Origin: a virus
IMG/VR virus record: IMGVR_UViG_3300033075_000468
DNA: 64,000 nt
Direction: 5' to 3' (one strand)
This document shows, piece after piece, positions 3,199 through 43,499 of the stretch (positions are counted from its first letter, which is position 1; each line of letters opens with the position of its first letter). The translations under genes were made by a program, and so were the position numbers. The notes beneath the pieces are model-generated. The model ran no database searches. It worked only from the letters and a program-made list of their open reading frames with translations, and was not told where the DNA came from.

Positions 3199-3825
3199 TT
3201 AGTAATACTCTAGGTATGCACCTAGAGCAAATGCTGACTTTCCACCTGCTGTTTCAGGCGATGCTGAAATTCCTACATAGAAATAGTGATCTGCTGAACC
3301 TGATCTTGATGCAAGATCGTGGCGCTCAGATGTGTTATCTCCACCAACGTTAGCTGTGGTAAATCCTGTCGGACCAGTTGTTGTGTCTGAGTTCAGCACA
3401 AACCATGCTGAAAGACCCTCGCCCTTTACGTAGCTGGCTACGTCTACACCAGTGGCCTGAGTTGTTGTTACTGAGCCATTGTATGTATAAATCTTACCAT
3501 TCTGTAGCGCATATGCAGCGGCATCATTAAAGTGAAGTCTGTATGAGCACTCATTGTCAGCTAGGTTTGTGTCGTTCAATGTCTCTGAACCACCACCATT
3601 TACTGACATTGTTGTTGAAGTCAGATACTTCACATTGTTTGCGTGTGATGAACCACACTGGTCTGTGCCAGGTGTTCCGTTACCCAAGTGGGTACCGTCT
3701 TGAAATGCTGTGGCGGCTACTGTTGCAGAAATTGATGAGCTTGAGCCCGAAAATACAAGTCTATTTGCGCCCATATCCGTCCAAGCTGGTGTCCCTACGT
3801 AAGCCTCCCAAGTTATTGTTGCCAA
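3199..3825 (-). CDS. Hypothetical minor tail protein.
   Basis: ORF of 208 aa, Ser/Thr/Gly-rich, within the tail block. Confidence 0.4.
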   Translation of the reverse strand: MATITWEAYVGTPAWTDMGANRLVFSGSSSSISATVAATAFQDGTHLGNGTPGTDQCGSSHANNVKYLTSTTMSVNGGGSETLNDTNLADNECSYRLHFNDAAAYALQNGKIYTYNGSVTTTQATGVDVASYVKGEGLSAWFVLNSDTTTGPTGFTTANVGGDNTSERHDLASRSGSADHYFYVGISASPETAGGKSAFALGAYLEYY

Positions 3826-3877
3826 TTTTACTCCTTTGATTAGCCCACATGGGCATATGTATCAATGATAGATACCC

Positions 3878-4282
3878 TTAAATTATATGTCTAGTGTAGT
3901 CACAAGCAATGCGTAAATCATATTTTGGGTTTGGTGACCATGACGTAGGAATATCTATCATTATCCAAAACTTCAATTCTTCGTCCGCTGCTAAATCAAA
4001 ACTCAATGTCGGGCCATAGGTCCCTGCCACCCCCGCCACATCTAGAGCGAACTGCACCCATCCAGATTCATCTGTATCTCCTAAGTCTGTACAATACAGC
4101 AGGCCATCGGTGAGATATTCTGCTGAGGGAGAGTTCATTCTTAAGTAAAATGTCTGTTCGATAGTTGCTCCGGTAGATGGTGCGCTCCACACAATGGGAT
4201 TACTGAACGATTCATCTTCAGATATCTGTCCTACTCCGCTAGGATACTTATAGATACCAAGCATTAAGTTCCCACCGCCCAA
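3878..4282 (-). CDS. Hypothetical structural protein.
   Basis: ORF of 134 aa in the tail block; its start overlaps the upstream gene. Confidence 0.35.
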   Translation of the reverse strand: MGGGNLMLGIYKYPSGVGQISEDESFSNPIVWSAPSTGATIEQTFYLRMNSPSAEYLTDGLLYCTDLGDTDESGWVQFALDVAGVAGTYGPTLSFDLAADEELKFWIMIDIPTSWSPNPKYDLRIACDYTRHII

Positions 4283-16808: not shown

Positions 16809-17219
16809 TTAAACCGCTTGTACAAGCGTAAGAGATATTCTATATCTGAATCCCTCTTCGGTGCTGCGGCGTTGCAATAATTCTTCTTCGTATGACTCAA
16901 CGAATACAGTATATGTATTATCATGTAAGCCATCTTTCACACGAAGATCCATAGAACCATATGAATCCAACGCCACCGACGAAATTTGGTTTCGTCCCCC
17001 GAACCCATCAATTGTATATGTCGCATCGGCAGACACATTTGTCCATTGAATGGTCCACTTTTTGTACAAGCCTTTTATGTATCTTCTCTTTGAACCATTA
17101 GCAAGTTCCACCTCTACCATGCGCTCATCACGCTGTGTCTGTAGAGGTTCCCTAGACTCATCAGTAAACTCTACCCCGTTTAGAGATATGATATTTGGCA
17201 TTGAGAACGTGATTGGCAT
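16809..17219 (-). CDS. Hypothetical tail protein immediately downstream of the tape measure gene.
   Basis: ORF of 136 aa whose start overlaps the tape measure stop. Confidence 0.4.
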   Translation of the reverse strand: MPITFSMPNIISLNGVEFTDESREPLQTQRDERMVEVELANGSKRRYIKGLYKKWTIQWTNVSADATYTIDGFGGRNQISSVALDSYGSMDLRVKDGLHDNTYTVFVESYEEELLQRRSTEEGFRYRISLTLVQAV

Positions 17220-20200: not shown

Positions 20201-23200
20201 GTCCCGATAACGCTGAACGAAGTCCAAAGCACGCTCTGCTGCTCCACCAGCCTTAGATCTAGTCTTTGAGAATCTACCCTCACCAGGCATATTCCGCCAT
20301 CCATACCCAAGCGTATCTCCCGCCTGTTGAGCAATCTCTTGTCGCATCTTCCACTTAGCAAATCTAGAAATCTCTTTACGAGTATAATTCTTGGCGTCTC
20401 TACCAGTAGAAACATCATCAAGGTGCATCTCTGCCAACAACTTCTGTTGTTCAACAGTAAGAGCACGGAACTTTCTCGCCCCGACAAGCTCTCTCTTAAA
20501 GCTTCTCTTCGCCAGCGCTTCCTTATTCTTGTTTACTCTATCATTTGCAGTATCACGAATAGCAGCGGTCTTAGCATTCTCTAGATTGGCTGCGTCCTCT
20601 GCCTTCTTGGCTAGTTCCTCAGCTTCCTTAGCAATTCTATCGGCAGCTTTTGTTTTAGCCTCATTCCATGCAGCTTTCTCTGCCTCCCATGCAGCAAGTT
20701 TGGCTTCGTTTCTAGCTTTAATTTCTTCTCTTTGCTTTGCTGAACCCTTAACCTTCTCAAGTTGTGGCTTCTTAGGCTCTTCGCCAGTTCCTAATTCTGC
20801 ATTAGCAAGCTCTTCAAGCTTCTTATTTCTACGCTCTTCTGTTACTCTGTTAAACTCTTGTTCTGAATTGAAGATTTCTTCAGTACCATCATCATAAGTT
20901 ACCTTGAAAGCACTTGTGAACATATCAGCAAGTTCTCTCTGTGCCTTGTCTCTATCTAGCTTAGCCTTTGACAATTGGTTCTGAAGCCCCAGCTTACGAC
21001 GCTTATATACTTTAGCAAGTCTCTCGTCATGTGCCTTTACAGCAGCTTCTTCAGCAACTCTTGCCTCTTCTAGCTGGTCCTCGATAACCCAAAGAGCGTC
21101 TTGTTTAGTAACAAAGGCATCTCGCATTCCATCAATCTCTTGTTGAGAATGGCTAGCCAGTGCATCTACAGCACTATATCCTCTATCACTTCTAGCTTCT
21201 CCTGTATCCTTAACAAGATCCGGGTCCATCTGGAATTCTTTTCTAGCATTGTCGTCTTCTGGCCCATTTGCTCTTAGACCATTCAAGGTATTGACACGCC
21301 CATCCATTCCAATGGACTTCATACCTCTGCGTCGTGCAGCCTCAGCAATGTCTCTAGTGATTGTCTCACCAAATACCAATTGAGCCATATCAAGGTTTCT
21401 ATTTAGCTCACCCGCAATAGCATGAGCACGCTTTGCATACTCTGTAACCATGTCTTCTGACAAGTCGGGGAAATATGCACGCACAAGCTTCTTCGCATCA
21501 CGCAAAGAGTTAGAAGTTACACGTGATTCACGAATCTTACCCTTCTTAACGGTTGCTTCAGTACCCTCTGTTGCTGCTGCAACTGTCATGTTGTGCAACA
21601 AGCCTGCCATCTCAGGAGAAAGATTTCCTACAAGCGCTCCCAGGTTTGGAACACGCTCAAACTTAACACGACCTCTTCTACCAAAGAGTTTAGGTGCAGT
21701 CTTATCTGATGGGCCAAAGTATTTATCAAGTATATCACTGTGTCTCTCTCCACCAAAGATATCCTTGCTATACTTCTCTGCTTGCTCTTCCCGGCGAGAC
21801 TTCTTGCCAAACTTGACAGTACGCATATAACCGCTCTTATCCAGAGCAGCGTCAAGTGCCTCTAAATCTGTATCGTATAGCTGACCCTTTGTTAGAGATT
21901 CAATGAATCTTGTTGCTTCTATAATCTTGCGCTCTGAACGCTTATTCATTCCACGCATTCCAGACTGTGCAGCAATAACTTCATCTAGAGTAAGTAACCT
22001 TCTAGTCTCTAGATCCCGCAGTTCATTCTGAATCTTTGCTATGTAGTCCTCAACTAATGCACGACGCTCTGGACGAGTAGCACTCTCACCAGTTCTCTTA
22101 TCAAATCTATCGAGTGTATACATAGCCTTAGAAAGCTTGTCTCTAAGGTTTCCAGTATAGAAATTGTAAAGTTCCTCATCACCGTGAACTTCTTCCCAAT
22201 CATTATCAATCTTTCTGATTGTCTCAATGTTTGCAGCAATAGACTTCTTGTGTCCATCAATAAGCTGTCTGGCTCTACCCAATGACTCTGAGTGCTTAAC
22301 TGAGAAATCTTCTGGATCTAAGTCCACTGTGTCTGAATCAATCTCACCAGATATAGCAAGGTTCTTAAGAGCACGAAGTAGTGCTTCTCTACGGCGTTGA
22401 CCTCTTTCAATCAGATCACCAGTCTTACCCATCTTGGCTTGTTCGGCTTCAAACTTGTCAAATGTCTTATTGAAGTCGTATAGAAGAGAGGTATAGCCCT
22501 TCGCAATTTTTTCATCGCCAGTGTCAAAAGTTTGTCTTCTAAGGAAATCTTGGAATCTACGAACTGCACGCTCAGCATCACCATACTGTCTTGGCTTACG
22601 CAATCTTCCATTGCTAAATCTGTCAGCATAAAGCTCTGCCTTCTTTGCCTGAAGCCGACCCATCTCATCAAATAGATCGCTAAGATCTTGAAGTCTTTTA
22701 CCTGTTGCTGAAAGTCCTTCTTCTTGTGCAGCAAGAATTTCTCTTACGCCAGCAAGTGCCTCGTCAACCTCACCAACAGATTTCTTAATTGCACGGGCCT
22801 TGATAGAGCCCTGGCTTCTTATGAGATTGCTACCAGTCAATGACCGATCTACACCATATGAAGGTGTTGTCTGTGATGCATCTGGATTAAGGGCACTGTC
22901 TGTAGCATGCTTGATAATGCTCTCGAATTCTTGAGTAAACATTCTGTCCACCCCAGCCTTATCCATAATCTCCTTTGAGATTTGAGCTACTACAGCAGTA
23001 GCCTTATGGAAGTCCTCGGTTGGCAGCATGGCACTAAGCGCTTTCATAGCCTCAGCCGGTCTATAACCCGCATAAACAATTCTTGAAACAGCATCGGCTA
23101 CAGCAGGAGGCAGACCACCCTTTGAAGCAATATGTGAGTGCTGATCTGATTGCCCGAAAGCGCTTCTAATGAAGTCGATCATTATCTCTTCATTTTTCTT

Positions 23201-26200
23201 ATCTGACTTCTCAATAGTAAGAGCATTTCTTGCACGAATCATTCCGTTAATTTCAACGATACGATCATAAGCAGGCGAATCTGCATCTGGAACTTGTAGT
23301 TCTTCGATAAGAGAACGAACACGACTAATCATCTTTTGGATTTCTCCATCAGACATACCAGCGTGGATTTCCTTCTTCTTCTTAGTAAGCTTATTGCTTA
23401 GAATACCAAATGTATTTGCTAGCTTTTCATTACCACGCTCTACATATGTTTCTCTTTCACCTAGGCTCTTTGAGAAGAACATATTATTTATCTTGTCGCC
23501 AACTACAGTTGCAACAATAGAATCTACACCTCTAGGCGAAGCTCCAATTTCTCCTGAAGTTACTTGTTCCATACCAAATTTTCTAGGAGTTCTTGGGCGT
23601 GCAGCAAATCCTTTAAAGAATGTATTTCTTCTATCATCTTCAGCGAGAATTTTATCTAGTCCGGTAAAGTCAAAATACTTCTCTCCCGACTTATCATCTT
23701 GCCCCAACTCAAGCAGTTCTTTGAGTGATTCACCAATAAAGTAATCAGGAGCCAAAGACTTAGATCTTGTATTGCCCGTGATATTTCTGATCGTTCTCTT
23801 TAGACCATTGCTAAGACCTACTTGTCTTTGGATCTCAACAAGATCATTGCTGTCTGGCACCATACCACCGGCAATATCTTGAACAATGCGAGCAATCGCA
23901 TCACGCATAACACTCTGTGAGCGAAGGATTCTTTTTCTTTGTACCTTCAAAAGACTTGTGTTTGTAGCTGTGTGTCTCCCACTTGAAACCTCGTTCTCGA
24001 TCATTTCAAGTACATACTTGTTCTTACCCTCAACAGTCTCGACCATCTTGATCAAGCGCTGTTGCAGGGTATTGAATTGAGCAGCCTCAGTAGGAGAGAA
24101 TGATTCAGTAATAGAACGAAGAACCCGCCCCATCTCTTCAGTGAGTCCTTGGTCCTTCTTCATTCTGCCCTTTTGACCTTTGCCAGCTAATTCAGCTTTT
24201 CTAATGTCATAAAGGCTCTTGCTTATTCTCTCTACAGGGTCTAGTCCTTTACCCCGAGCATCAACATCTTGTGCCTCAGCTTTTGCTACCTCTAGCACCT
24301 GTGCAATTTGTCTATCATATTCCCGCTCTGATACGTCAATAAATCCTTGGCCTGAAGAATCATGAATTAGTTCCTTAATATGCTCGAACATTGTAAAAGG
24401 CAATGGACGTGGATCATCTGCCGTAGTCATTGCTTCTCTAGCTCTGACAATATCTGAAGCAGCTTCTTCAATAGTGTCTCTTGCCGGGAAGGCATCTCTT
24501 CTTGCTTTAAGGCCAGCACGCTCAAGGGCATCCTTAAATAGTGCTGACTTATCTTGTGCAGATAGATCTGACTTCTCTGCTGCCTTGATCCACTGATCAA
24601 CTTGAACGGCAGTGATAGTTTCACCACTTGGCTTTTCCACAAGCTTACGAAGGGTTGAATCCCAAGTTGTAACTTTTTCTCTACGAATTGATCCTCTTAG
24701 TCTCTCAATTCTCTTTGATGCGGCTTCTGACCCAGCCGAATTTGTAGAGATATCACGCAATGTATCTCTCAAAGCATCAGAGAATCTATAGAATCTGTTC
24801 TCGAAGTCTGCAAGAGCCTCAGCAGGATCAGCAATAGACATATCAATAGTTACAGGAGCATCATATCCCCATGTCTTCTTGAATGATGCCATTCTATTTC
24901 TAAGACGCTCTAGTCTCTCAATGCGATTATTTACAGCATCAAGATCCGGGTCCACCATATCGCCAAGAGCTAGTCTTCTTGCAAGATTCTTGATATCTGC
25001 CTCTGAACCTAATGCCTTGATTTGATCGTCTGAAGAAGCAATTATTGCCTCAAGATCCTTGACTCTGGCATCTGTTTGGCCAGGCTTTAGGATTGAGGTA
25101 TCAATAGCTTCCTTTACGTCTTTACCTCTACCTAGCCCAATTCTCTTATTTCTTCTGATAATCTTATTTCTTAATGACATTGCAGCATCTTCAGAAGAAA
25201 CTGCGCTAGCTGTTGCTGTACCAGGCATCAAAGTAGCAAGATACGCTCCCGAATCGAAAGCCTCATGCTTTAATGAACCAGCAGCCTTGCGCTTCATAGC
25301 AATGCCCGCAGCCTCAACAGAGTTGAGGTGCGTTTGTGCTGTGGCCTGAGCCTCAATAGCAGTAGCATTAGCAGTAGCAGCAGCAGTGTGCGCCTGTGTT
25401 GCTGTAGCGATACCTTCAGTAGTTATCTTTGTCTTAGAAGCTTCATCAATAAGTGTCTTTAAAGTTACCTTGTAATCATTGATGCTTATTTTTCCCTTAG
25501 AAAATGCATCATTAAGAAGAACAAGTGCGTCCTCGGCTTCAGGCGTCCACTTCCACATCTCACCAAAAGTTTTGGATATACCAAACAGCTTAAGGAATGG
25601 GAAGATCAAACCCTTTGCTGATGTGCCAAGCACGATCATCGCCTGACCAGCAGAATAAATCACTGGACCTAATGCGGATAGACCTACCAGCAATGTAAGC
25701 GCAGCCTTTTTTACGCCCTCAGGAAGCTTCTCAAACGAGTCAATAACTTTCTTTATATTCTCAAGAAGATCAACAACATACGGAATAAGCTTCTTGCCAA
25801 TGTCCTGACCAGTATTAACGATCTTTTGAAGTAGACCTTGAATACGGATTGTCTCATCAGCACCTACAACATCTAGCTGCTTTGACCATTCCTGAGCGAA
25901 TGCACCAATTTCTGTATTAGCAATGTTCATTGCTATTGCAAGATCTTGTCCGCTAGCTGTCGCTTGATCCATTGACTTAGACAGTGCCTCAAGAAGCTGT
26001 CCACCTTCTGTAGCCCCTTCTCCACCAAACAATGCTCTAATAGTTCTGAGAGATGTTGCGTACTTTGTGGGATCTGTTTTTTCTAATAGAGCATATCCCT
26101 TTGCCAATTCAGAAAGCATTTGCACAGCAGTTGCAGGCTTCCCGTCATTATTCATGAGCTTAACCTGTACGCCAGTAAGCTTTCCTATAGAATTGATTTG

Positions 26201-27358
26201 CTCCTGAAGGTCCTTAAGTCTTTGCTTACCACCTGTTGAACCCGTCTCAATGTTTGCAAGAGCAGTAGGCAACTTTACAAGTGCGTTATTCAATGCCCGA
26301 GCAGCATCAGAGGCAGACAGACCACCCTGGGTAATACCAGCCATAAGGGCTGCTGTCTGTGTAATAGAAGCATCGAATCTTTTTGTAGTTGGGAATACAT
26401 CTGCTAGAGCAGCAGCAGTATCCTTAATGTTCATGTTTGTCTTCTGATCAATGATCAAGAATTTTTGTAGCTGATCTTCTACTGTTTCGATAGACATACC
26501 AGCCTGATACATAACCTGCACAAGCTTTTGTGCTTCTGAAGTATCAACCTTACCTAGAATTGCTAGCTCTGAAGCTTGTTGTGTGGCTTTACCTACTTTT
26601 TCAATACTAAAGCCTACACGTGCAAACTCTGATTGCATTTCTTTCAGGCTTACACGTGTCATTCCATATGTCTCAGAAAGTGAGCGAGTCTGATCATCAA
26701 GCTTCTTTAGATCGTCTGAACTAGCTGTAGAAAGTACACGCTTAAGAACAAGATCTACTGCACCAATTTCCATGGCAGCACGAACAGAAGTAACACCAAT
26801 AGCAGCTAGTGGAGCAGTAACACCAACCATAAGCTGGCGACCAGTCCACTGTGCATTCTTACCTAGCTTGATCCACTTATCTGCTGTGTTATCAAGATAT
26901 CTTGTGATTAAGTTGCCCTTGATCAAGAATCGAGTATGCGCCATGTCCATGTCATTCATTGATCTGACATATCCATTGTGTCTAGTCGATGTTGTCTCGA
27001 ACTCTTTACCTAACCGATATAGACCTTCCTTAAGTCCATTCAATGACTTAAGATATCTATTATCTATAACCTTTGAGCCCTCGTTCCAGGCATTAGCCAA
27101 GAGGGACCCGTGCTCTCTAGCAAGCTGGGCCTGAGTGATGTTTTTATTAAGGGCTTTGGTAACTGTACCAATGGCAGCAGCTTGTTTATTAGCGCTGCTA
27201 GCTACCGCTCCCCCACCTAGTGCTTTATTCATAGAAGCACTGGCTTGTTCCATAGCCTTAGCTATGCCCTTCGCCATTTGCTCTACTACTTGCCCACCCT
27301 TGATTGCTGATGTAGCATCAACATTTACAACGATGGGCATTACAATTGCTTGACTCAA
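17219..27358 (-). CDS. Tail tape measure protein (3379 aa) with a C-terminal M15-type peptidase motif.
   Basis: It lies immediately downstream of the chaperone pair. It has long Ala/Glu/Lys-rich coiled-coil tracts, a hydrophobic Gly-rich membrane-like segment, and a C-terminal SSMHEFGLAMD, which fits the M15 signature S-x-H-x-x-G-x-A-x-D. Confidence 0.8.
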   Translation of the reverse strand: MSQAIVMPIVVNVDATSAIKGGQVVEQMAKGIAKAMEQASASMNKALGGGAVASSANKQAAAIGTVTKALNKNITQAQLAREHGSLLANAWNEGSKVIDNRYLKSLNGLKEGLYRLGKEFETTSTRHNGYVRSMNDMDMAHTRFLIKGNLITRYLDNTADKWIKLGKNAQWTGRQLMVGVTAPLAAIGVTSVRAAMEIGAVDLVLKRVLSTASSDDLKKLDDQTRSLSETYGMTRVSLKEMQSEFARVGFSIEKVGKATQQASELAILGKVDTSEAQKLVQVMYQAGMSIETVEDQLQKFLIIDQKTNMNIKDTAAALADVFPTTKRFDASITQTAALMAGITQGGLSASDAARALNNALVKLPTALANIETGSTGGKQRLKDLQEQINSIGKLTGVQVKLMNNDGKPATAVQMLSELAKGYALLEKTDPTKYATSLRTIRALFGGEGATEGGQLLEALSKSMDQATASGQDLAIAMNIANTEIGAFAQEWSKQLDVVGADETIRIQGLLQKIVNTGQDIGKKLIPYVVDLLENIKKVIDSFEKLPEGVKKAALTLLVGLSALGPVIYSAGQAMIVLGTSAKGLIFPFLKLFGISKTFGEMWKWTPEAEDALVLLNDAFSKGKISINDYKVTLKTLIDEASKTKITTEGIATATQAHTAAATANATAIEAQATAQTHLNSVEAAGIAMKRKAAGSLKHEAFDSGAYLATLMPGTATASAVSSEDAAMSLRNKIIRRNKRIGLGRGKDVKEAIDTSILKPGQTDARVKDLEAIIASSDDQIKALGSEADIKNLARRLALGDMVDPDLDAVNNRIERLERLRNRMASFKKTWGYDAPVTIDMSIADPAEALADFENRFYRFSDALRDTLRDISTNSAGSEAASKRIERLRGSIRREKVTTWDSTLRKLVEKPSGETITAVQVDQWIKAAEKSDLSAQDKSALFKDALERAGLKARRDAFPARDTIEEAASDIVRAREAMTTADDPRPLPFTMFEHIKELIHDSSGQGFIDVSEREYDRQIAQVLEVAKAEAQDVDARGKGLDPVERISKSLYDIRKAELAGKGQKGRMKKDQGLTEEMGRVLRSITESFSPTEAAQFNTLQQRLIKMVETVEGKNKYVLEMIENEVSSGRHTATNTSLLKVQRKRILRSQSVMRDAIARIVQDIAGGMVPDSNDLVEIQRQVGLSNGLKRTIRNITGNTRSKSLAPDYFIGESLKELLELGQDDKSGEKYFDFTGLDKILAEDDRRNTFFKGFAARPRTPRKFGMEQVTSGEIGASPRGVDSIVATVVGDKINNMFFSKSLGERETYVERGNEKLANTFGILSNKLTKKKKEIHAGMSDGEIQKMISRVRSLIEELQVPDADSPAYDRIVEINGMIRARNALTIEKSDKKNEEIMIDFIRSAFGQSDQHSHIASKGGLPPAVADAVSRIVYAGYRPAEAMKALSAMLPTEDFHKATAVVAQISKEIMDKAGVDRMFTQEFESIIKHATDSALNPDASQTTPSYGVDRSLTGSNLIRSQGSIKARAIKKSVGEVDEALAGVREILAAQEEGLSATGKRLQDLSDLFDEMGRLQAKKAELYADRFSNGRLRKPRQYGDAERAVRRFQDFLRRQTFDTGDEKIAKGYTSLLYDFNKTFDKFEAEQAKMGKTGDLIERGQRRREALLRALKNLAISGEIDSDTVDLDPEDFSVKHSESLGRARQLIDGHKKSIAANIETIRKIDNDWEEVHGDEELYNFYTGNLRDKLSKAMYTLDRFDKRTGESATRPERRALVEDYIAKIQNELRDLETRRLLTLDEVIAAQSGMRGMNKRSERKIIEATRFIESLTKGQLYDTDLEALDAALDKSGYMRTVKFGKKSRREEQAEKYSKDIFGGERHSDILDKYFGPSDKTAPKLFGRRGRVKFERVPNLGALVGNLSPEMAGLLHNMTVAAATEGTEATVKKGKIRESRVTSNSLRDAKKLVRAYFPDLSEDMVTEYAKRAHAIAGELNRNLDMAQLVFGETITRDIAEAARRRGMKSIGMDGRVNTLNGLRANGPEDDNARKEFQMDPDLVKDTGEARSDRGYSAVDALASHSQQEIDGMRDAFVTKQDALWVIEDQLEEARVAEEAAVKAHDERLAKVYKRRKLGLQNQLSKAKLDRDKAQRELADMFTSAFKVTYDDGTEEIFNSEQEFNRVTEERRNKKLEELANAELGTGEEPKKPQLEKVKGSAKQREEIKARNEAKLAAWEAEKAAWNEAKTKAADRIAKEAEELAKKAEDAANLENAKTAAIRDTANDRVNKNKEALAKRSFKRELVGARKFRALTVEQQKLLAEMHLDDVSTGRDAKNYTRKEISRFAKWKMRQEIAQQAGDTLGYGWRNMPGEGRFSKTRSKAGGAAERALDFVQRYRDRDTTETLAQFAGDQFPITRKKRFSRAKFFGGLVKDAAESEKGKSVGGKAFGFLNILTNPAASIGKFTGFMKSFAQEGGKGVAIMEGMFGPQMAGQISTGLAAAGPWILVIAAIAAVVLILWKNWKKWIDTARPGIEALKESLSKLWHGIIDPFIGVFKRLGGEGNKQGSMWKNIGTIIGAAARAFSKIIDVIRPFVSLLADTLASALYIFIQAIRLIIALLTGDWSDAWDAAKEIFSEVWDHMKMVAGLAVLAVIKGVFALVRGTIEGMGMIGNAARKFVAFLNPVGGAGPLENVDKWKQSALDAVGAAQSALEDKVWDTDSANRKAAEAGKKQGEAYKDGLDKINQEKLDLYSNLPTPDEQKAAAEEATKEFISAFKSKLEKIMEGWKDAALSAFDDWAQTQKDAIDEKVKAIDKEIDAERKRDEDLEYLRRKEEIREKRRELNVKYRADRALAIYEGRFDDAKQMDYDHGQSLKDLRKEDADVDKDRVKTLVDRERDAQKERLQIEKDALEKSIAAQRKALEAQLDAFTEFTPRSEQAAKDLQAKILGALSAATGGYATIGAENASAWSSSWKTAMDEAKKQVEDDNYWKNMGQEAMAAFAKELGVELDPKAFEDTPGNAPLTGDEAAAAAGGDNWAKAQGGGYQGRKGYTVNSFPDNPNRYHSGGTVAGMPGEVDATLLSGEYVMQRSAVSKYGQKMLDAMNNGKMKFHSGGMVSDVLAGGIKNVFGQFVKGFMGGNIGLGLTGSDGTTTNINASRMKQAILEAASPANMIIDHIYPAFMKAFNDFNAALGNKFDVVSGFRSYQQQADLYAKYLAGKGNLAAPPGSSMHEFGLAMDTAPNSTPADRELARKFGLVFPIPSEPWHVEPINAKQVRESLQAGSENLQNTYSELGFKIRNGLVVQNVPSLDVGGMIRKSGIAEVHKGERVLTASQTAAYNAGGKTEIHVHIDGNFFGSDREIEKLVGRIDREITPKIQRVKGTQSRTFSKVTH

Positions 27359-35762: not shown

Positions 35763-35946
35763 AAATCATTTTCGTTCTGTGAAACAGGGTCTTTTCCCTA
35801 CATACCTCGCATGGAAGATGGATATCTTCCAACATACAGTTTTTAAGCTCTAACTCAAATTCTTCGCATTCTTGGCATTCATACACTGCGAGGAAATGTA
35901 GAGGATAGTTAGACATTATTTCTCCGGGCACCCATTCGGACCACAA
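35746..35946 (-). CDS. Small Zn-ribbon protein.
   Basis: ORF of 66 aa with CQECEE...CEVCREK. Confidence 0.3.
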   Translation of the reverse strand: MWSEWVPGEIMSNYPLHFLAVYECQECEEFELELKNCMLEDIHLPCEVCREKTLFHRTKMIYGLSI

Positions 35947-38900
35947 GCTAGCTCTCCTGAGCCAGTAGTTGCGACGTACTCATAAAGTTCATACTCCGCT
36001 CTCGAAATACGCTCATATGGAGACTGTGGTCTTGACCCGTCAATCATAATGGTTGTTCCCTTTAGGTTTGGTAGATAATGAATAATTGTTTGCTTTGCCC
36101 GCTCGACAGTTTCAAAGGATGGAGGACCAACCTTTAGTGCCCATGCTGGCACATCGTTCTCTATTTGCTTAGCAAGAAATTCACGTTGTCTTTGATCAGG
36201 CTCAATGTTTACAGTAAAGCTAATTGCATTGTCTGCATAGCACTCTTGAACCATTGCTTGAATAGCTAAGAAATCTGTGAGGGAAACATCTTGTGCCCCC
36301 TCAACTAGATCAGCATCAAAGCCCAAAGCTTCAACTTCAGCTACTAGCGGGTCCTTAACATAGAATGTTACTACCTTTGTATTAACCGTATAGATATCAT
36401 CTTCAATCTCATAACCTTGAGCAGCTAGCTCAATGAGTTTAGGTGAATCTGCGGAATACCGTACTCTTCGCTTAAAATAAGGTGAGTAAGTTGTTTGTAT
36501 AGATTCGGTTGCTCCTGGCAATTTTGCAATTGTTCCAGTAGGAGCAAGAGTAGTTCCCTTAATTGGAATTGGGATTCTAAGTTGGTGAGCATAACGAATC
36601 TTTTCCTTATCTACTACGGCCTTCCAATCCCGCAAAGTCTTACGAACATTACGGTCACGGTGTGAGTCGCTATAGCGTAGACCTTGCTTCACCAGCCATG
36701 CCTGATAACCAAAAAATCCAACACCGATACGACGATTACGATCCACTACCTCACGCTGCAACGGATTTGGAACATCTCCAAATGTTGCTCTCATGAGGAA
36801 TCTCGTCATTAATCTGAAGGCTTCTTTTGAACCCTCGAAATCGTTATAGAATGCAGAGACATTGACATGACCCAAGTTGCAATTTTCCCATGGCTCCAAT
36901 GCGATTTCCCCGCAATTATGAACATATAAACCATTTGCATCAAATGCATTTATACCAGGAACTTGAGCATCATATACTTCTTGTTCCCCAATATATTCTA
37001 ATGAATTGAAGGTCGCTGTCCACGGCTTCGAATAAAAGCCACGCTTCATCAATTTAACAGAATCATAGAACTTATTGGACTTATTATCATTTACGAAGCC
37101 GATAATATCCATAAATCTTTCTGAGTCAGATGTGATTATGAGTCTCCAATTATCCTTCGTCCAGTAATCAGCTAATCCTCCATGACCATCGGGCATGGCT
37201 TTAAATCCAGCGGGGCGGGCATGATTTATCTTTGATCTTATACCAAAATTGAGAAGCATCTTCTGTACCGTCTGTAATCTCTCAAAATTAGATTGTGACA
37301 ATCTTATTGAAATACCTCCGTCAGTAGACGATCCCTCCACATGTCCGTCAGTATCAAATAGACCTCGTAGTAATCCTTTCTGGAAATCTGAACTTGTCTT
37401 AGTTATCAAATGATCAAAATCTTTTGTCCCAACTGGCAAATACTCAGATATAATATCAGCCTTAAGCTCATATCTTTCAGTGCCCTTATACCAGCCACCA
37501 CTATTTACACATATAGAAAGATATTGACGCACACCTATCTCAGCAATATCCTCGCCCCAAGAGCAAAGTAAAGGTCTGCTATTGCTCCAAGTACCATCGC
37601 CAACGAAATGCCCTATGGCATATCCGTCTAGCTCTGATCCCTGTCCACCCCAATCTGCTTCAACTTCATGGTTATGGAGCATAATCTTATCTCCATGGCG
37701 CAAGGACCCTGCTTCTATCCAACCTTCTTCCGTCATGACCTTGTGATCGTATGTAAGATTAAGCTCATATCCTTCTAACGTTGATAGTGTGTATACAGGC
37801 TTAACACCAGTTGAAAAGAATCCATCAGTCTTGTATGGCTTACCATCAACCATCATATAACATGGACGGTTTAAATATTCGTCCACCCGCCTTGGACCAT
37901 TTTGGGTAAGGACTAATGTATCTCCTGTTACGCAAGGGTTGGTCGAACCAACATCTCCCAATTCTCCGACAGAGGCCAACGATATATTATAGAATCCAGG
38001 CTCGCCATTCTCGAACATTCCTTCTATTACTTTTTGATATACTTCTTGTGCATGTTCATGATATCCATGCCGCTTGCTCTTTAGAGCTACAAAAAAATCA
38101 TCATCAATCTCTACCGAGATATTTGTAGACCAATGCTCACCAGAGTCCTTCTTGCAATCAATGAACTCAAAGATATCATGGTCAATCCAAGACTTGATTG
38201 ACATACGTGCGCTTCTACGCACATTTCCTGCCACTACACACTCAGCGATACGATGATCAATAAGCATGTTCTCTAGAGAAGTAAGCTTTCTTCCCACCGT
38301 ATTATTCAATACTTCACAAATCTTATGAAGCATTATAGCTAATGCTATTGGTCCTGACGCAGTTCCACCGAACCCACGAATAGGAGAATTCTTTTCTCTA
38401 ACATTAGATACGTCTAGAACAAGAGTGTTGTATCCCTGTGCTCCATCTACTGTTGAGCCAACCAATAGTTGACGTAGGGCTTCTACCCAGCCCTCTCTTG
38501 AATCATCAATACGCTCCGCTCCATCCCAAAGATGGGAGAAATCCTTTGAGATTACTCCTGCATCTACCATGTCCTGATAATCAGGATGGGCTGGATTGCA
38601 TGTCACATGGACACTGATTGGATTCAGAATAGGTGGTTGTTCCGTTAAATAACGATTGGAGTAGTTTGCTCCTACTCCACCACCCTTCATTAATTCATCA
38701 AATGCAAACGTAAAATGTGTTGACAGCGTATTATCAAACGCTGCCCTGTGACAGTTAAACAAGAACTGTCTCCCCGGCACACCTGAAACCCATAGGTGTC
38801 TTCCTGCCGGAATCATCTTGAAGTTATAGATCAAATCAAATAACTTCTGCTTCTCATCAGGCTCAATATACTTTGATGCTACTAGCCCGGTATTTCCTTC

Positions 38901-39017
38901 TACTACTCTGCGAACTGTGTCTTCCCAAGTCTCGTTCTCGCCGTTCGCTTTGACTCGCATGTACGTGCGCTCATAGACCTCCTGGCCTATGGGACCCCAC
39001 TTAATGCCTTCAGGCAT
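35916..39017 (-). CDS. nrdJ: Ribonucleotide reductase class II (adenosylcobalamin-dependent NrdJ) interrupted by an intein.
   Basis: The extein junction reads GSTNP|C...HN|CGEIALEPWENCNLGHVNVS, which reconstitutes the class II active-site NPCGEI motif. The intervening segment begins with Cys, ends with His-Asn, and is followed by Cys. Confidence 0.9.
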   Translation of the reverse strand: MPEGIKWGPIGQEVYERTYMRVKANGENETWEDTVRRVVEGNTGLVASKYIEPDEKQKLFDLIYNFKMIPAGRHLWVSGVPGRQFLFNCHRAAFDNTLSTHFTFAFDELMKGGGVGANYSNRYLTEQPPILNPISVHVTCNPAHPDYQDMVDAGVISKDFSHLWDGAERIDDSREGWVEALRQLLVGSTVDGAQGYNTLVLDVSNVREKNSPIRGFGGTASGPIALAIMLHKICEVLNNTVGRKLTSLENMLIDHRIAECVVAGNVRRSARMSIKSWIDHDIFEFIDCKKDSGEHWSTNISVEIDDDFFVALKSKRHGYHEHAQEVYQKVIEGMFENGEPGFYNISLASVGELGDVGSTNPCVTGDTLVLTQNGPRRVDEYLNRPCYMMVDGKPYKTDGFFSTGVKPVYTLSTLEGYELNLTYDHKVMTEEGWIEAGSLRHGDKIMLHNHEVEADWGGQGSELDGYAIGHFVGDGTWSNSRPLLCSWGEDIAEIGVRQYLSICVNSGGWYKGTERYELKADIISEYLPVGTKDFDHLITKTSSDFQKGLLRGLFDTDGHVEGSSTDGGISIRLSQSNFERLQTVQKMLLNFGIRSKINHARPAGFKAMPDGHGGLADYWTKDNWRLIITSDSERFMDIIGFVNDNKSNKFYDSVKLMKRGFYSKPWTATFNSLEYIGEQEVYDAQVPGINAFDANGLYVHNCGEIALEPWENCNLGHVNVSAFYNDFEGSKEAFRLMTRFLMRATFGDVPNPLQREVVDRNRRIGVGFFGYQAWLVKQGLRYSDSHRDRNVRKTLRDWKAVVDKEKIRYAHQLRIPIPIKGTTLAPTGTIAKLPGATESIQTTYSPYFKRRVRYSADSPKLIELAAQGYEIEDDIYTVNTKVVTFYVKDPLVAEVEALGFDADLVEGAQDVSLTDFLAIQAMVQECYADNAISFTVNIEPDQRQREFLAKQIENDVPAWALKVGPPSFETVERAKQTIIHYLPNLKGTTIMIDGSRPQSPYERISRAEYELYEYVATTGSGELACGPNGCPEK
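36924..37934 (-). other. Intein with a LAGLIDADG homing-endonuclease domain inside nrdJ.
   Basis: It has an N-terminal CVTGDT, C-terminal LYVHN with Cys at +1, and internal YAIGHFVGDG and LLRGLFDTDGHV LAGLIDADG blocks. Coordinates come from the junction codons read in the DNA and carry roughly +/-9 nt uncertainty: the DNA junctions give a 337-aa intein, whereas counting residues in the ORF-track protein gave 340. Confidence 0.8.
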
Positions 39018-40398: not shown

Positions 40399-40692
40399 TT
40401 ATTGAGTAGCGCTACAAGACTTGCACAAAATTGTAAGCCCCGTAATTTGACAAGCATTCTCACGCCTGCATTTATCGCACTTCAACCAATATAACACCTT
40501 TTCAGAAAGCTGCATGCCAATTCGTTTATCCATTTCACCCTGGCCTACTGGCACTGTGAAATATGCCTCACAATCTGAATGTGAACAAGTGTATTGCCAT
40601 ACTGTCTTTTCTTTGTTCTGACCAAGACAAGTGCTCCACCCCGAGCCGCAGTATGGACAGAATTCCCACCTATCCTTCCACTGACCACTCAT
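40399..40692 (-). CDS. Small Cys-rich protein.
   Basis: ORF of 97 aa with several CxxC pairs. Confidence 0.35.
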   Translation of the reverse strand: MSGQWKDRWEFCPYCGSGWSTCLGQNKEKTVWQYTCSHSDCEAYFTVPVGQGEMDKRIGMQLSEKVLYWLKCDKCRRENACQITGLTILCKSCSATQ

Positions 40693-40933
40693 TACACCAC
40701 CTGCAACTCAATTCGCCAGTTTTACGATCAATAGTAAAGTAGTTCCATCCACACTTTTTGCATGCAGGGATATGGCCCAACTTCTCACGCTTAATAAGTT
40801 TCTCTACATTCTTCTTTGCCATAGCGACGATACCGTTTGTTTGCTTTTCTCTTGATAGCTTTCTGGACTCCTGCCCGCCACTTCTTTGCGGCGTAATATC
40901 CACGCTTGGCAAATGAATCCATTTCGTTGCCAT
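40670..40933 (-). CDS. Small Zn-ribbon protein.
   Basis: ORF of 87 aa with CKKCGW...CRWCNEW. Preferred over the overlapping ORF at 40791-41048. Confidence 0.3.
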   Translation of the reverse strand: MATKWIHLPSVDITPQRSGGQESRKLSREKQTNGIVAMAKKNVEKLIKREKLGHIPACKKCGWNYFTIDRKTGELSCRWCNEWSVEG

Positions 40934-40962
40934 CTATTCTATCTCTGCGCCTAGTGTTAGAA

Positions 40963-41337
40963 CTATCGCTCATTTGATATCCACCACATAAGCTTACGAA
41001 GTTGTAGTTTGATTTCATCAGCATCACTAAGTTCATATCCGAAGCCATCTTCGCTTCTTAGCTTCCACCATAGATGTACTTCAAACTCGCTATTAAAATA
41101 TAGTGATATATCGTATCCATTTTTATGCCAAACAAACATGATGCCAGTCCACTCTTCATCAGGAATAACAGATGGTGTTGGGCTGTAATCTGGCAAATAT
41201 ACAGGTGTAAGAGTTTTTACGACCCAAATCAATTCCTTACTAGGATAAGGATATTCTGGCTCTCCCTCATATCCTTTAGACTTAACTAGCATACTAGCTA
41301 ATCTCTCATCAATATAAGGAAAGAGATGTTCATTCAT
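40963..41337 (-). CDS. Hypothetical protein.
   Basis: ORF of 124 aa. Confidence 0.4.
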   Translation of the reverse strand: MNEHLFPYIDERLASMLVKSKGYEGEPEYPYPSKELIWVVKTLTPVYLPDYSPTPSVIPDEEWTGIMFVWHKNGYDISLYFNSEFEVHLWWKLRSEDGFGYELSDADEIKLQLRKLMWWISNER

Positions 41338-41339
41338 GG

Positions 41340-41366
41340 TCTAGTATGAGGGATTTGAACCCCCGA
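41340..41366 (-). pseudogene. tRNA 3-prime fragment (T-arm plus 3-prime acceptor, CCA encoded) between an HNH gene and the next gene.
   Basis: The minus strand reads gtcgggggttcaaatccctc-atactag-a-cca, a perfect T-arm like those of the tRNAs at 50686 and 57532, with no 5-prime half present. Confidence 0.35.
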
Positions 41367-41954
41367 CTACCAATCCTTCCTCGTTTTTAGTGCATGACAC
41401 CATACACACAATGGCATCAAATTTTCTATTTTATTATTAGATCTATTTGAGTCAATATGATCAACATCTAACATTTTTTTGGGTATTTCAATTCCAGATT
41501 TTTGAAGAGAACAATCAGGATTACAGCAAATCTCTCCAAATTTAGAAAAGGCTTTTTCTCTATAATTGGTGCCTCCTTTCCAATTTGGATGAAACTCTTC
41601 TACTTTAAACTTATTATTAAAGGAAGTTGCACAACTTCTATTACAAAATACTTTTCCTGTTTTACTTTTATCAATTTGTGACTTTCTTCTTTTTACTTTT
41701 TTTTGACAATATCCACACTCTAATGTTATAGATTCAGATTTTCCTACTGACTGACAATTTCTACTACAATAAACATTAGGGAAGATATGGGTTTTGCGCC
41801 TCCAAATTTCTGTATCACATACAGAACACTTAACTAGCGCCCACCATCTATGATTCTCAAATTTTTCATCAATAAAGTCAGGTAAGAGGGCTACGATCCC
41901 CCGACCTTCGATTCCCAAAACCGACGCTCTTCCTACTGAGCTATTACCTGTCAT
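41367..41954 (-). CDS. HNH endonuclease with a Zn finger. The annotated N-terminal 25 codons coincide with a tRNA-Pro gene.
   Basis: The C-terminal LMPLCVWCHALKTRKD fits the HNH motif. No alternative in-frame start exists downstream of the tRNA until late in the ORF. Confidence 0.55.
   Translation of the reverse strand: MTGNSSVGRASVLGIEGRGIVALLPDFIDEKFENHRWWALVKCSVCDTEIWRRKTHIFPNVYCSRNCQSVGKSESITLECGYCQKKVKRRKSQIDKSKTGKVFCNRSCATSFNNKFKVEEFHPNWKGGTNYREKAFSKFGEICCNPDCSLQKSGIEIPKKMLDVDHIDSNRSNNKIENLMPLCVWCHALKTRKDW
41878..41950 (-). tRNA. tRNA-Pro(TGG) with a non-canonical T-loop.
   Basis: Hand fold: caggtaa-ta-gctc-agtaggaa-gagc-g-tcggt-tttggga-atcga-aggtc-ggggg-atcgtag-ccctc-ttacctg-a, 73 nt. 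The acceptor is a perfect 7 bp. The T-loop is aTCGtAG, with positions 54 and 58 swapped relative to consensus. Confidence 0.5.
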
Positions 41955-42042
41955 ATGTCTATACTGTTATATTTCGGATTCTAATTCAAGCTTGCGTCCC
42001 AAAACAAGCGCTCCACCAAGCTGCGCTAATACTAGATAGTTA

Positions 42043-42062
42043 GAGGGGCCTTTCGGCCCCTC
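42043..42062. other. Strong GC hairpin (gaggggcc-tttc-ggcccctc) downstream of the 42102-42335 gene.
   Basis: Perfect 8-bp stem with a tetraloop. It has no adjacent T-run, so terminator function is uncertain. Confidence 0.3.
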
Positions 42063-42101
42063 ATAAGTATTCTATCCTTAGTCGCTTCAGCGAGAGGCTA
42101 C

Positions 42102-42335
42102 CTAAGGATTTACCTCTTCCACATCTAGCCCATCGGCTACCCACCATCCGGCATCTCTAATGTCGGACAATTCGGGAGGCCAATCTTCTAAAGTGTGTCC
42201 CTCCACACTATCAGGCCAAGTGCCTGTGTCTTTGTAAGATGGATAAAGGAAAATGCCGCCAAATTGCCCCCAGCCCTCATTGCGATCCCGTAAGTCTTGC
42301 GGGGGCGTTTCTGATCTAACTGCTGGTGCTGGCAT
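42102..42335 (-). CDS. Hypothetical protein.
   Basis: ORF of 77 aa. Confidence 0.3.
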   Translation of the reverse strand: MPAPAVRSETPPQDLRDRNEGWGQFGGIFLYPSYKDTGTWPDSVEGHTLEDWPPELSDIRDAGWWVADGLDVEEVNP

Positions 42336-42345
42336 CTATATCTCC

Positions 42346-42921
42346 TTAGTCGTTTCTGTATGTGTATGTGCCGTCTGTGTGTCCCCAACCACTGGTACGA
42401 TCACGTAGAGATGTTCTAGCCGACTCATCCCGCTTTGTTGCATTGCCATCGTTTAGCTGAACAGTGTTGCGTGTATCTGCTGTGCGACCTGAGGCAAGTG
42501 CCTCTGAATCAGAGGTTGAATGAGCGGTGTTTGAACCCGTTCCTGTTTCTGCCGAATTTGTCTCGTCACGGAAAATACCATATGTATAATCCAGCGGATC
42601 TGCTAGGGAAACGGGTGTCTCTGCGTCCATATTTTCAAATCCATACGAACCTGCACCACCAATACCAGTAAAATCTCCACCATAACCTGCTGTACGATCT
42701 ACGTTATCTACTTGATTCGCCTCAGCAAAAGACTTGCGTAGTCTGCGTGCTCTAGCTACTCTTGTAGCTGTTGATTCCTTTGAAGCATCTGTCTGTGTTA
42801 GCGAATTACCTGATGCTGAGCCCCAAGTACCATTGTCTTCTCTATTAGAATCAGAAGCTGCTGTGTGGCCCCATCCTTCGACTCTATCTACAATCGAAGC
42901 GGCCCCTCTTGTTTCTGCCAT
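42346..42921 (-). CDS. Hypothetical low-complexity protein.
   Basis: ORF of 191 aa, Ser/Thr/Gly/Asp-rich. Confidence 0.4.
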   Translation of the reverse strand: MAETRGAASIVDRVEGWGHTAASDSNREDNGTWGSASGNSLTQTDASKESTATRVARARRLRKSFAEANQVDNVDRTAGYGGDFTGIGGAGSYGFENMDAETPVSLADPLDYTYGIFRDETNSAETGTGSNTAHSTSDSEALASGRTADTRNTVQLNDGNATKRDESARTSLRDRTSGWGHTDGTYTYRND

Positions 42922-43047
42922 TGTTTACTCCTTTTAAACTTTGTGCGCCAAATAGCGCCTGTTGGCACTATATCAAATTTATCATTACTTGGCGATAGAA
43001 TAGAAAAAGGGCACCCGAAGGTGCCCTTAATCTGTGCGTGACTGCTG

Positions 43048-43120
43048 AGCCCACTCAGGGATTCGAACCCTGGACCTATCGCTTACAAGGCGATTGCTCT
43101 AGCCTCTGAGCTAAGCGGGC
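43048..43120 (-). tRNA. tRNA-Thr(TGT).
   Basis: Minus-strand fold: gcccgct-ta-gctc-agaggcta-gagc-a-atcgc-cttgtaa-gcgat-aggtc-caggg-ttcgaat-ccctg-agtgggc-t, 73 nt. Confidence 0.8.
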
Positions 43121-43127
43121 AAATCTT

Positions 43128-43499
43128 TTAAAGATTAGGAACTAAATGATTCCTAAAAAACGGTCCATCGAAACAGAGCTTAGCAAGATGGGCGTCCATG
43201 CCCTCACCCATATCAAGTTCTTCATCTATGATAACACCATTAAGAGGATACCGCTCCACAATTTCTAGCGCACCTCTTGTGTGGTACATAGTTATGAGCA
43301 CCTTAATTTCATCGTCAATAAAGATCCCCGCAGATTCGAGAAACGTGCGAACTCCTAGCTCTGTGATCATACCGTAGGCCAGACCTAGAGTATCCAAGAG
43401 GTAAAAGGCACGGTTCATTGGGTCGGTAATTGATGACGCCTCATTACGTCGGTCTTCTAGGAAGTCCAGTAGGGGCGTAGATATTGCTAGCTCGTCCAT
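43128..43499 (-). CDS. Hypothetical protein.
   Basis: ORF of 123 aa. It is preceded on the minus strand by an unusual GC-rich leader. Confidence 0.45.
   Translation of the reverse strand: MDELAISTPLLDFLEDRRNEASSITDPMNRAFYLLDTLGLAYGMITELGVRTFLESAGIFIDDEIKVLITMYHTRGALEIVERYPLNGVIIDEELDMGEGMDAHLAKLCFDGPFFRNHLVPNL

Follow-up and report, generated by a model that had tools for sequence, protein, structure and literature searches.

The minus strand of a 64,000-nucleotide (nt) stretch of viral DNA (IMG/VR record IMGVR_UViG_3300033075_000468), referred to below as the window, holds a tRNA-Pro(UGG) gene that has been split by a 621-nt cassette carrying a second tRNA-Pro(UGG) and an HNH endonuclease gene. 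The cassette is poor in guanine and cytosine (GC) and lies at a single clean point of the resident gene, and empty sites prove the insertion. Most probably, a free-standing homing-endonuclease cassette, which brings along a replacement tRNA, has invaded a phage tRNA-Pro(UGG) gene at this locus. A preliminary description of this region, made from the letters alone, dealt with the tRNA that coincides with the beginning of the HNH open reading frame (ORF), and missed that the tRNA and the HNH gene form a unit inside another, broken tRNA-Pro gene. The parts of the locus are the following:

41991..42035, minus strand: resident tRNA-Pro(UGG), 5' half, positions 1-43 (CTAGTAT TA GCGC AGCTTGGTG GAGC G CTTGT TTTGGGA+C GCAAG)
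41370..41990, minus strand: inserted cassette of 621 nt (40-nt spacer, tRNA-Pro(UGG) and HNH gene), absent from the empty-site alleles
41951..41990, minus strand: cassette spacer of 40 nt, with the ATG 41954-41952 and no visible Shine-Dalgarno motif
41878..41950, minus strand: inner (cassette-borne) tRNA-Pro(UGG), with C1:G72, A73, G35 and G36, T-loop ATCGTAG, CCA not encoded
41367..41954, minus strand: HNH ORF as mechanically called, 195 codons, of which codons 2-26 are tRNA; ATG at 41954-41952
41367..41873, minus strand: conserved HNH coding region, residues 28-195, with two CxxC...CxxxC zinc-finger-like repeats and then the HNH motif
41337..41369, minus strand: resident tRNA-Pro, 3' half, positions 44-76 (TAGTC GGGGG TTCAAAT CCCTC ATACTAG A CCA)

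Insertion into a resident tRNA-Pro gene

On one side of the cassette, 42035-41991 contain the D-arm and the anticodon arm of a tRNA for Pro (UGG), the latter represented by CTTGT TTTGGGAC GCAAG, and on the other side a T-arm, a 3' acceptor strand and CCA follow directly after the HNH stop codon (TC GGGGG TTCAAAT CCCTC ATACTAG A CCA; 41366-41337). The 7-nt acceptor strand of this 3' half can pair with 42035-42029 without a mismatch, three other tRNAs of the window have T-arms that match the T-arm stretch, and the last A of the CCA is at the same time the A of the ATG of the downstream gene. Rfam returned a weak tmRNA/tRNA-like match at 41347-41404, and when 42035-41991 were joined in silico to 41369-41337, ARAGORN recognized a cloverleaf, labelled tRNA-?(Pro)(tggg), in which the anticodon loop has 8 nt.

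The stretch 41990-41370 is recognized as an insertion between positions 43 and 44 because the window aligns to empty-site alleles on both sides: the alignment to the intact alleles runs up to G43 and starts again from 44/45. No tRNA nucleotides were removed by the insertion, and T 41369, which completes the HNH stop codon TAG (41369-41367) in the variable loop of the resident tRNA, stands in place of A44. The GC content of the cassette is 28-34%, as compared to 42-50% in the flanks, and this dip, together with the divergence of the inner tRNA from the resident type, points to a foreign origin.

Several alleles of this locus can be compared, the flanking protein of 77 amino acids (aa) having relatives at ~92% identity. 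The cassette is present in the window, in L001 and in L051-L057, and the site is uninterrupted in L059/L060 and L068/L069. In L059/L060 (contigs of 72.7 and 135 kb), the 77-aa gene and a hairpin are followed by an intact tRNA-Pro(TGG) with no HNH gene, and the CCA overlaps the ATG of a homologue of the 124-aa gene found downstream in the window; the tRNA of L060 (6301-6377) reads CTGGTAG TA GCAC AGCTTGGTA GTGC G CTTGC TTTGGGA GCAAG AAGTC GGGAG TTCAAAT CTCTC CTACCAG A CCA. L068/L069 hold a second intact allele, again without HNH, with the window-type acceptor stem (L068, 2800-2876: CTAGTAT TA GCTC AGCTTGGTA GAGC G CCGCA TTTGGGA TGCGG AAGTC GGGAG TTCAAAT CTCTC ATACTAG A CCA). A third allele is that of L058 (Logan SRR26835473), where, at 375-798, a 22-nt remnant of the resident tRNA (CTAGTATTAGCTCAGCTTGGTA) is followed by an unrelated 111-aa HNH ORF (401-736), the 3' end of which overlaps a different intact tRNA-Pro(TGG) (722-798), and then by the usual downstream gene. 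This HNH protein is 39% identical (E 1e-23) to the product of another ORF of the window (55415-55828, see below), and L058 represents a second, independent invasion of the same tRNA-Pro locus.

Over 2119 nt, L054 differs from the window only by 41361 G>A and 41351 C>T, which correspond to the paired positions 52 and 62. Because its T-stem (GGGAG/CTCTC) is of the L068/L060 type and its downstream sequence is of the L068 type, L054 is a recombinant, in which the switch occurs within a few bases beyond the HNH stop codon. The differences of L051 from the window cluster away from the cassette, which leaves a comparison of co-conversion tracts without information. As for more distant relatives, no GenBank phage was retrieved when the region and the flanking proteins served as queries, save a 67-nt tRNA-Pro match in Ruegeria phage vB_RpoS-V10, and searches of IMG/VR with the flanking protein and with the resident D-arm gave no matches.

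Decay of the split gene

It is concluded that the resident tRNA-Pro is a pseudogene in two pieces, the decay of which has begun. Its 5' half shows four private and uncompensated changes, namely T12>G, which puts a G.A mismatch into the D-stem, the substitutions A21>G and C31>T, and one additional C behind position 38, which gives the 8-nt anticodon loop; this number matches the expectation for neutral drift at a flank identity of 86-88%. Between the two intact alleles, all differences lie in the acceptor, D and anticodon stems and are compensated.

An intron-like interruption, with the resident tRNA-Pro still being made by splicing or by association of its halves, would agree with the perfect acceptor complementarity of 7 base pairs, with the intact T-arm and CCA and with the fact that nothing of the tRNA was lost at the insertion. 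Nevertheless, no match to group I or group II intron models was obtained in 40900-43300 (Rfam, E<=10), the tRNA and the ORF leave no more than 40 nt of the insertion as non-coding sequence, the position 43/44 is outside the anticodon loop, and the 5' half bears the uncompensated D-stem mismatch, G21 and the enlarged anticodon loop. The compensatory T-stem pair of L054 does not help this interpretation either, since it came with the L068-type allele via recombination. On balance, it is extremely improbable that the resident tRNA is still produced in this way. With the maximum intron length set to 900 nt, ARAGORN left the two halves unjoined. A self-splicing group I or II intron was rejected on the grounds of the missing covariance-model match and of the position outside the anticodon loop, and selection on a split tRNA was rejected as the origin of the G-C>A-T pair at 41361/41351 in L054, the L068/L060-type T-stem having been recombined in. 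As to a functional split or permuted tRNA of the archaeal or algal type, with joining at a bulge-helix-bulge, the decay of the 5' half argues against it.

The cassette tRNA and its T-loop

The inner tRNA-Pro(tgg) was called by ARAGORN at 41877-41950 on the minus strand, and the Rfam model RF00005 matched 41878-41950 over its full length (1-71) with 55.5 bits (E 1.1e-10; gathering score 29), which is far above chance. Both tools thus bear out the 73-nt minus-strand tRNA-Pro(TGG) with a perfect acceptor helix of the preliminary description: the acceptor CAGGTAA/TTACCTG is paired in 7/7 positions by Watson-Crick pairs, all four stems are paired and the T-arm is GGGGG-ATCGTAG-CCCTC. Read on the minus strand, the tRNA and its immediate surroundings are ...ACAT ATG A CAGGTAATAGCTCAGTAGGAAGAGCGTCGGTTTTGGGAATCGAAGGTCGGGGGATCGTAGCCCTCTTACCTGA CTTT ATT GAT GAA.... 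It is the sole intact tRNA-Pro among the 22 tRNAs of the window (ARAGORN), it is 67% identical to the resident type vs 78% to a Ruegeria phage tRNA-Pro, and it has no exact match in GTDB genomes. In bacterial tRNA-Pro, the identity elements for prolyl-tRNA synthetase are A73, G72 (C1:G72), G35 and G36; all of them can be read from CAGGTAA...TTTGGGA...TTACCTG-A. The one polymorphism of the inner tRNA, 41894 G>A in L001, turns G57 into A57 and retains a purine.

The T-loop had been reported to carry A54/T58 in place of T54/A58, a reading that is correct (A54 T55 C56 G57 T58 A59 G60) and does not provide the canonical U54-A58 reverse-Hoogsteen pair. The same combination (ATCRTNN) occurs in 8 of the 134 distinct tRNAs of the window and loci L001-L061, i.e., the inner tRNA, its L001 variant, a Phe, two Lys, an Ala and a Gly tRNA, and the Ruegeria phage tRNA-Pro, which is the best database match of the inner tRNA. 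In all eight the acceptor stem is paired at 7/7 positions and the T-stem at 4 or 5 of 5, and well-registered A54/A58 or T54/T58 was found in none of the 134. A T-arm identical over 22-24 nt to the swapped one of the inner tRNA is also present in a tRNA-Met (L070) and in two tRNA-Val, one of which (L071) lies beside a Lon-like gene on a high-GC, bacterial-looking contig and the other (L073) in a 21-tRNA array with two further swapped tRNAs. Those of the additional swapped tRNAs beyond the set of 134 that were scored show 7/7 acceptor pairs. Swapped A54/T58 tRNAs are located at:

L007:220-295
L008:3979-4052
L011:1807-1882 and 3370-3446
L012:3565-3640
L061:1494-1569
L070:1068-1141
L071:465-540
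L073:3700-3774, 3869-3943 and 4092-4165

The 21-tRNA array of L073 also includes a tRNA-Met(cat) (4014-4087) with the T-loop ATCAAAA (A54, A58, A60), a pattern described for eukaryotic initiator tRNAs.

Since positions 54 and 58 covary in tRNAs with intact stems, the survey argues that A54/U58 is a tolerated covarying alternative and not a mark of decay. Between the two possibilities originally considered for this T-loop, a preserved pair or a pseudogene, the former is favoured by the co-occurrence of A54 and T58 in many tRNAs with perfect stems, and the latter is disfavoured. In a comparison with other tRNA-Pro genes, as suggested at that time, the swap is present in the Ruegeria phage tRNA-Pro, the T-loop of the L002 tRNA-Pro is canonical and that of L060 and L068 is TTCAAAT. 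If the inner tRNA-Pro were nonetheless a pseudogene marked by its aberrant T-loop, the phage would depend on the host tRNA-Pro; the lack of an encoded CCA would fit, as would the near-universality of U54 and A58, the first of which is universally conserved except in eukaryotic initiator tRNAs according to a review (PMC7912444). Against this stand the Rfam score, the intact stems and the full set of identity elements, the presence of A54 together with T58 in at least 12 further distinct tRNAs, which cover several specificities, the absence of well-registered T54/T58 from the survey, with A54/A58 limited to the L073 tRNA-Met, and the preservation of R57 in the only polymorphism. A pseudogene therefore seems most improbable. 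No description of the A54/U58 T-loop was found in the literature that was searched. As an apparently functional alternative, it bears on tRNA structure, on the enzymes modifying positions 54 and 58 and possibly on the escape from nucleases that read tRNA genes.

An ORF with an HNH motif is found within 60 nt of 4 out of 7 independent swapped tRNAs vs 14 of 115 canonical ones (one-sided Fisher p = 0.009), in a sample that is biased and with a motif defined by a crude regular expression that misses some HNH genes. No swapped tRNAs are present in T5, L062 and L064, all 23 surveyed tRNAs of T5 having canonical T-loops. A link between the swap and nuclease immunity is a lead only.

The HNH gene and its start codon

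The residues 157-192 of the HNH ORF match Pfam HNH_3 with 29.8 bits (cutoff 24.8), Pfam HNH gives 21.2 bits, marginally under its cutoff of 21.4, and several PHROG HNH families also match the C-terminus; a search of solved structures with the protein gave just a marginal zinc-finger match. A public protein search returned 44 proteins at E<=0.001, and 22 homologues were taken into the alignment. H166, N178, H187, C143, C148, C183 and C186 are invariant across the 23 aligned sequences, and the HNH protein of the window keeps 24/24 invariant family columns, including the catalytic and zinc-binding residues. With these residues intact and 168 conserved codons free of stops and frameshifts in DNA of ~31% GC, the gene does not look like an obvious remnant.

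As previously described, the tRNA coincides with N-terminal codons of the ORF, precisely with codons 2-26; the ATG sits one base before tRNA position 1, and an in-frame TAA is found 5 codons upstream of it. Among the 22 homologues, residues 1-27 are shared only with P0001, which is from the same phage (99% identity). The nearest distinct homologue, P0002 (54% identity), opens with ATG GAT GTT AAA, which aligns with ATT GAT GAA AAA at 41873. This ATT (41873-41871) is codon 28, 4 nt past the tRNA, and is retained in all eight population contigs. Because the homologues begin right after the position of the tRNA, the 27-residue extension encoded by it is not a conserved part of the HNH protein.

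These data modify the original view of the start. Alternative in-frame starts, said to be absent until late in the ORF, do exist as TTG at codon 13 (inside the tRNA) and ATT at codon 28, the next ATG being codon 161. The choice between a tRNA-encoded N-terminus and a remnant gene was too narrow, as homologues start after the tRNA and the gene is no obvious remnant. A downstream start is supported by homologue alignment at ATT 41873, although the codon is non-canonical and a ribosome-binding site is not visible. No Shine-Dalgarno motif is visible before either ATG 41954 or ATT 41873, an absence that does not discriminate between candidate starts because only 7 of 29 crude gene starts carry one.

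Three scenarios can be considered for the expression of the gene. Initiation at ATG 41954 on an unprocessed precursor RNA comes nearest to an even chance, initiation at ATT or at another weak start is a lesser possibility, and an untranslated HNH gene is the least probable of the three. In all three, RNase P would cut one base past the ATG, separate this codon from the HNH ORF and keep the nuclease low. A frameshift from the out-of-frame ATG 41869-41867 was rejected, a good slippery site seeming to be absent.

True dual coding, in which HNH is normally translated from ATG 41954 and the tRNA encodes a functional N-terminal extension of 27 residues, is ranked below the mere use of this ATG because it is the stronger claim. 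The ATG is the sole one before codon 161, the frame is open, the ORF is intact in all eight population contigs, and L001 differs from the window at two places, one synonymous in the conserved part (41838) and the other a conservative V21I in the extension (41894 G>A). Yet the extension is absent from all homologues except the 99%-identical variant, the others starting at the position of ATT 41873, and an open frame through 25 tRNA codons with an upstream ATG is not improbable by chance (~0.15-0.3 as a rough estimate). Moreover, V21I is equally the purine swap G57>A57 at a tRNA position that is normally a purine, which fits a constraint on the tRNA, and the cut by RNase P would part the ATG from the ORF. 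Finally, gene callers have run other HNH ORFs through adjoining tRNAs: the N-terminus of P0010 (...RGFESH...) is a translated T-arm, the HNH ORF of L009 as called begins in a tRNA-Ala, and the ORF 55415-55828 of the window starts inside a tRNA. Dual coding is thus regarded as doubtful.

It is also rather unlikely that the HNH gene is a recently inactivated remnant, its start changed from ATG to ATT, with only the tRNA still functional. Decay is common among homing endonuclease genes that have reached fixation in a population, the ATT aligns with the ATG of a homologue and neither candidate start is preceded by a Shine-Dalgarno motif; still, all invariant residues are kept, 168 conserved codons have stayed open in AT-rich DNA, the only L001 difference in the conserved part is synonymous, and initiation is possible both at ATT and at the upstream ATG.

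The second HNH ORF of the window (55415-55828, plus strand; 137 aa as called) is small and unrelated to the first. As called, it runs from within tRNA-Leu(tag) (55372-55454) into tRNA-Ile(tat) (55819-55893), its likely true start being the ATG at codon 15, directly past the tRNA. For annotation, an anomaly is explained in this way: ORF callers routinely run nuclease ORFs through adjoining tRNAs, and tRNA finders overlook a split tRNA gene.

The cassette spacer (41951-41990, minus strand) contains TTGAAT, 17 nt and CAGTAT, ending ~7 nt before the ATG. If this were a weak promoter, the transcript would start at or near the ATG, so that one molecule would serve as a leaderless mRNA and also as a tRNA precursor whose leader is very short; a promoter scan gave no report of this element in the spacer.

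Association of the HNH family with tRNA genes

The HNH family as a whole adjoins tRNA genes and its closest members tRNA-Pro(UGG), as seen in the loci of homologues:

L002/L003: tRNA-Pro(TGG), 51 nt, HNH, 0 nt, tRNA-Pro(TGG)
L062 and L064: HNH start 8-11 nt from a tRNA-Pro(TGG) on the opposite strand
L013: tRNA-Pro 23 nt downstream of HNH

In L004, L007, L008, L009, L011, L012, L014 and L024 the HNH gene is within 60 nt of a tRNA-Ala, and more distant full-length IMG/VR homologues are 7-60 nt from a tRNA-Ala within dense tRNA arrays. Only L063 (no tRNA in the locus), L006/L010 and L015 are without a close tRNA.

Proposed origin and spread of the cassette

Free-standing homing endonucleases are characterized by presence/absence at a locus, foreign composition and a recombination boundary, all of which are found here, the last in L054. 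According to the preferred interpretation, that of a homing-endonuclease cassette with a replacement tRNA, the HNH enzyme would cut the intact tRNA-Pro gene of nuclease-free relatives during co-infection, near the junction of anticodon stem, variable loop and T-arm (position 43/44), and repair would then copy the cassette into the cut gene. The carrier genome would be immune, its resident target being split and its inner tRNA divergent. Of the ~22 positions that follow the anticodon loop on its 3' side, at least 6 differ between the inner and resident tRNAs, including the T-loop (GGATCGTAGCC vs GGTTCAAATCT), and on account of these differences the inner tRNA is expected to be resistant. The inner tRNA would also supply the lost tRNA-Pro function, and because of this replacement the insertion would cost little.

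The location of a tRNA within the ORF would be a by-product of the insertion, the ancestral start being now ATT and the frame happening to be open through the tRNA to an upstream ATG. The nuclease would probably be made at a low level, either from the ATG on precursor molecules left uncut by RNase P, with 27 additional tRNA-encoded residues, or by weak initiation at ATT. Maturation of the tRNA would cut the ATG off the coding region and so limit nuclease expression.

Several points weigh against this interpretation. The target site is taken from the insertion point alone, cleavage and inheritance being predictions. The HNH gene has no canonical start at its conserved N-terminus (ATT) and may be newly inactivated, and a single illegitimate recombination without nuclease action could explain the insertion. 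This exact cassette is found in one phage lineage only, from metagenomes of the wastewater and activated-sludge type; its mobility is suggested by the comparison of alleles, in which a second genomic background for this copy was not seen. Regarding immunity, the presence of the swap on the bacterial-looking contig L071 weakens a specific link with nucleases, and the canonical T-loop of the L002 tRNA-Pro upstream of the closest homologue indicates that the swap is not fixed in such cassettes.

A more specific proposal, which we hold to be a speculative one, is that of a natural "cleave-and-rescue" element, in which HNH destroys resident tRNA-Pro genes and brings along a recoded, cleavage-immune tRNA-Pro, the T-loop swap being the immunity determinant. 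If so, the swap would alter the most conserved DNA motif of tRNA genes, GGTTCRANTCC, which is read by nucleases such as SegB, and nuclease pressure would explain the recurrence of swapped T-arms in phage tRNA arrays as well as the identical 22-24-nt swapped T-arm across Pro, Val and Met tRNAs. More generally, the spread of a nuclease may depend on its breaking a gene for which it brings a resistant version, and not on a self-splicing intron. The allelic series of this locus, with two intact alleles, two independent invasions and one recombinant, would illustrate how homing endonucleases remodel and replace phage tRNA genes.

Comparison with known systems

The element is probably of the known type of free-standing homing endonucleases represented by SegB and the T5 F-Tfl enzymes; what is new is its location inside the presumed target, for which it brings a substitute, whereas other such elements lie next to the target or in a splicing intron. 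SegB of T4 is a free-standing GIY-YIG homing endonuclease of the T4 tRNA gene cluster (PMC2330249, PMC13096335) that recognizes the T-arm motif GGTTCRANTCC of tRNA genes (PMC2330249), and the association of SegB with tRNA genes has been described as widespread (2026 study, PMC13096335). In both cases the nuclease gene lies amid phage tRNA genes with which it shares transcripts, is carried by some close relatives and lacking in others, has tRNA genes as targets (through the T-arm for SegB, presumed here) and drives turnover or amplification of neighbouring tRNA genes; for both, a restraint of expression by tRNA processing is proposed, as was done for segB and the T5 nucleases (PMC2330249). On the other hand, the fold here is HNH, the cassette lies inside the presumed target tRNA gene and breaks it, whereas SegB lies between genes, and the cassette brings a divergent replacement tRNA of the same specificity; the present enzyme is known from sequence alone.

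F-TflI and F-TflII of T5 are likewise HNH-family genes within a tRNA array, with coding sequences overlapping adjacent tRNA genes (a pseudo-tRNA-Gln for F-TflII and a tRNA-Ser for F-TflI). These overlaps are at the 3' ends of the ORFs, and the T5 annotation consulted has no split tRNA enclosing a nuclease and a tRNA. With homing endonucleases borne by introns and inteins the cassette shares the clean insertion at a single point, the absence of lost target nucleotides and the presumed protection of the carrier by the splitting of the site, but there is no rescue by splicing, the function being apparently restored by a second, divergent copy within the insert.

In the synthetic ClvR ("cleave and rescue") gene drives, a nuclease destroying a needed gene is linked to a recoded, cleavage-resistant copy of it. 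The logic would be the same here, with cleavage of the resident gene and resistance of the inner tRNA as the presumed steps; unlike ClvR, this is a natural element that would act on phage DNA in co-infection, and tRNA-Pro may not be essential to the phage.

Neighbouring features

Two further features flank the split tRNA gene:

42045..42060, minus strand: hairpin GGGGCC-GAAA-GGCCCC between the 77-aa gene and the resident tRNA-Pro, 9 nt upstream of the latter
40963..41337, minus strand: 124-aa ORF, the ATG of which overlaps the resident CCA; absent from L054 and L068

The stem of the hairpin is conserved and its loop stays GNRA, being GAAA in the window, GTAA in L060 and GCAA in L058 and L068. 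As it is not followed by a T-tract, it may act in processing or stability and not as a terminator. On the other side, the 124-aa and 87-aa ORFs at 40673-41333 (minus strand) are replaced by 176 nt in L054 and absent from L068, and the 3' end of the resident tRNA is a boundary of variable gene content. The 191-aa ORF at 42346-42921 (minus strand) shows an in-frame length polymorphism at 42489-42519; the L051 version has 184 aa, and those of L059, L060 and L068 have 179-194 aa.

A second presence/absence polymorphism of a homing element between these lineages concerns ribonucleotide reductase (35916-39017, minus strand), which in the window lineage (L050/L052) has 1033 aa with Intein_splicing and LAGLIDADG_3 domains and in L059/L060 has 694 aa without these domains. 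The tRNA-Ile(gat) called by ARAGORN at 1349-1427 (minus strand) has a poor T-arm, with 3/5 stem pairs and a loop that is not TTC-like, and may be false or degenerate. Lastly, a very long ORF of ~3373 codons occupies 17219-27340 on the minus strand of the window.

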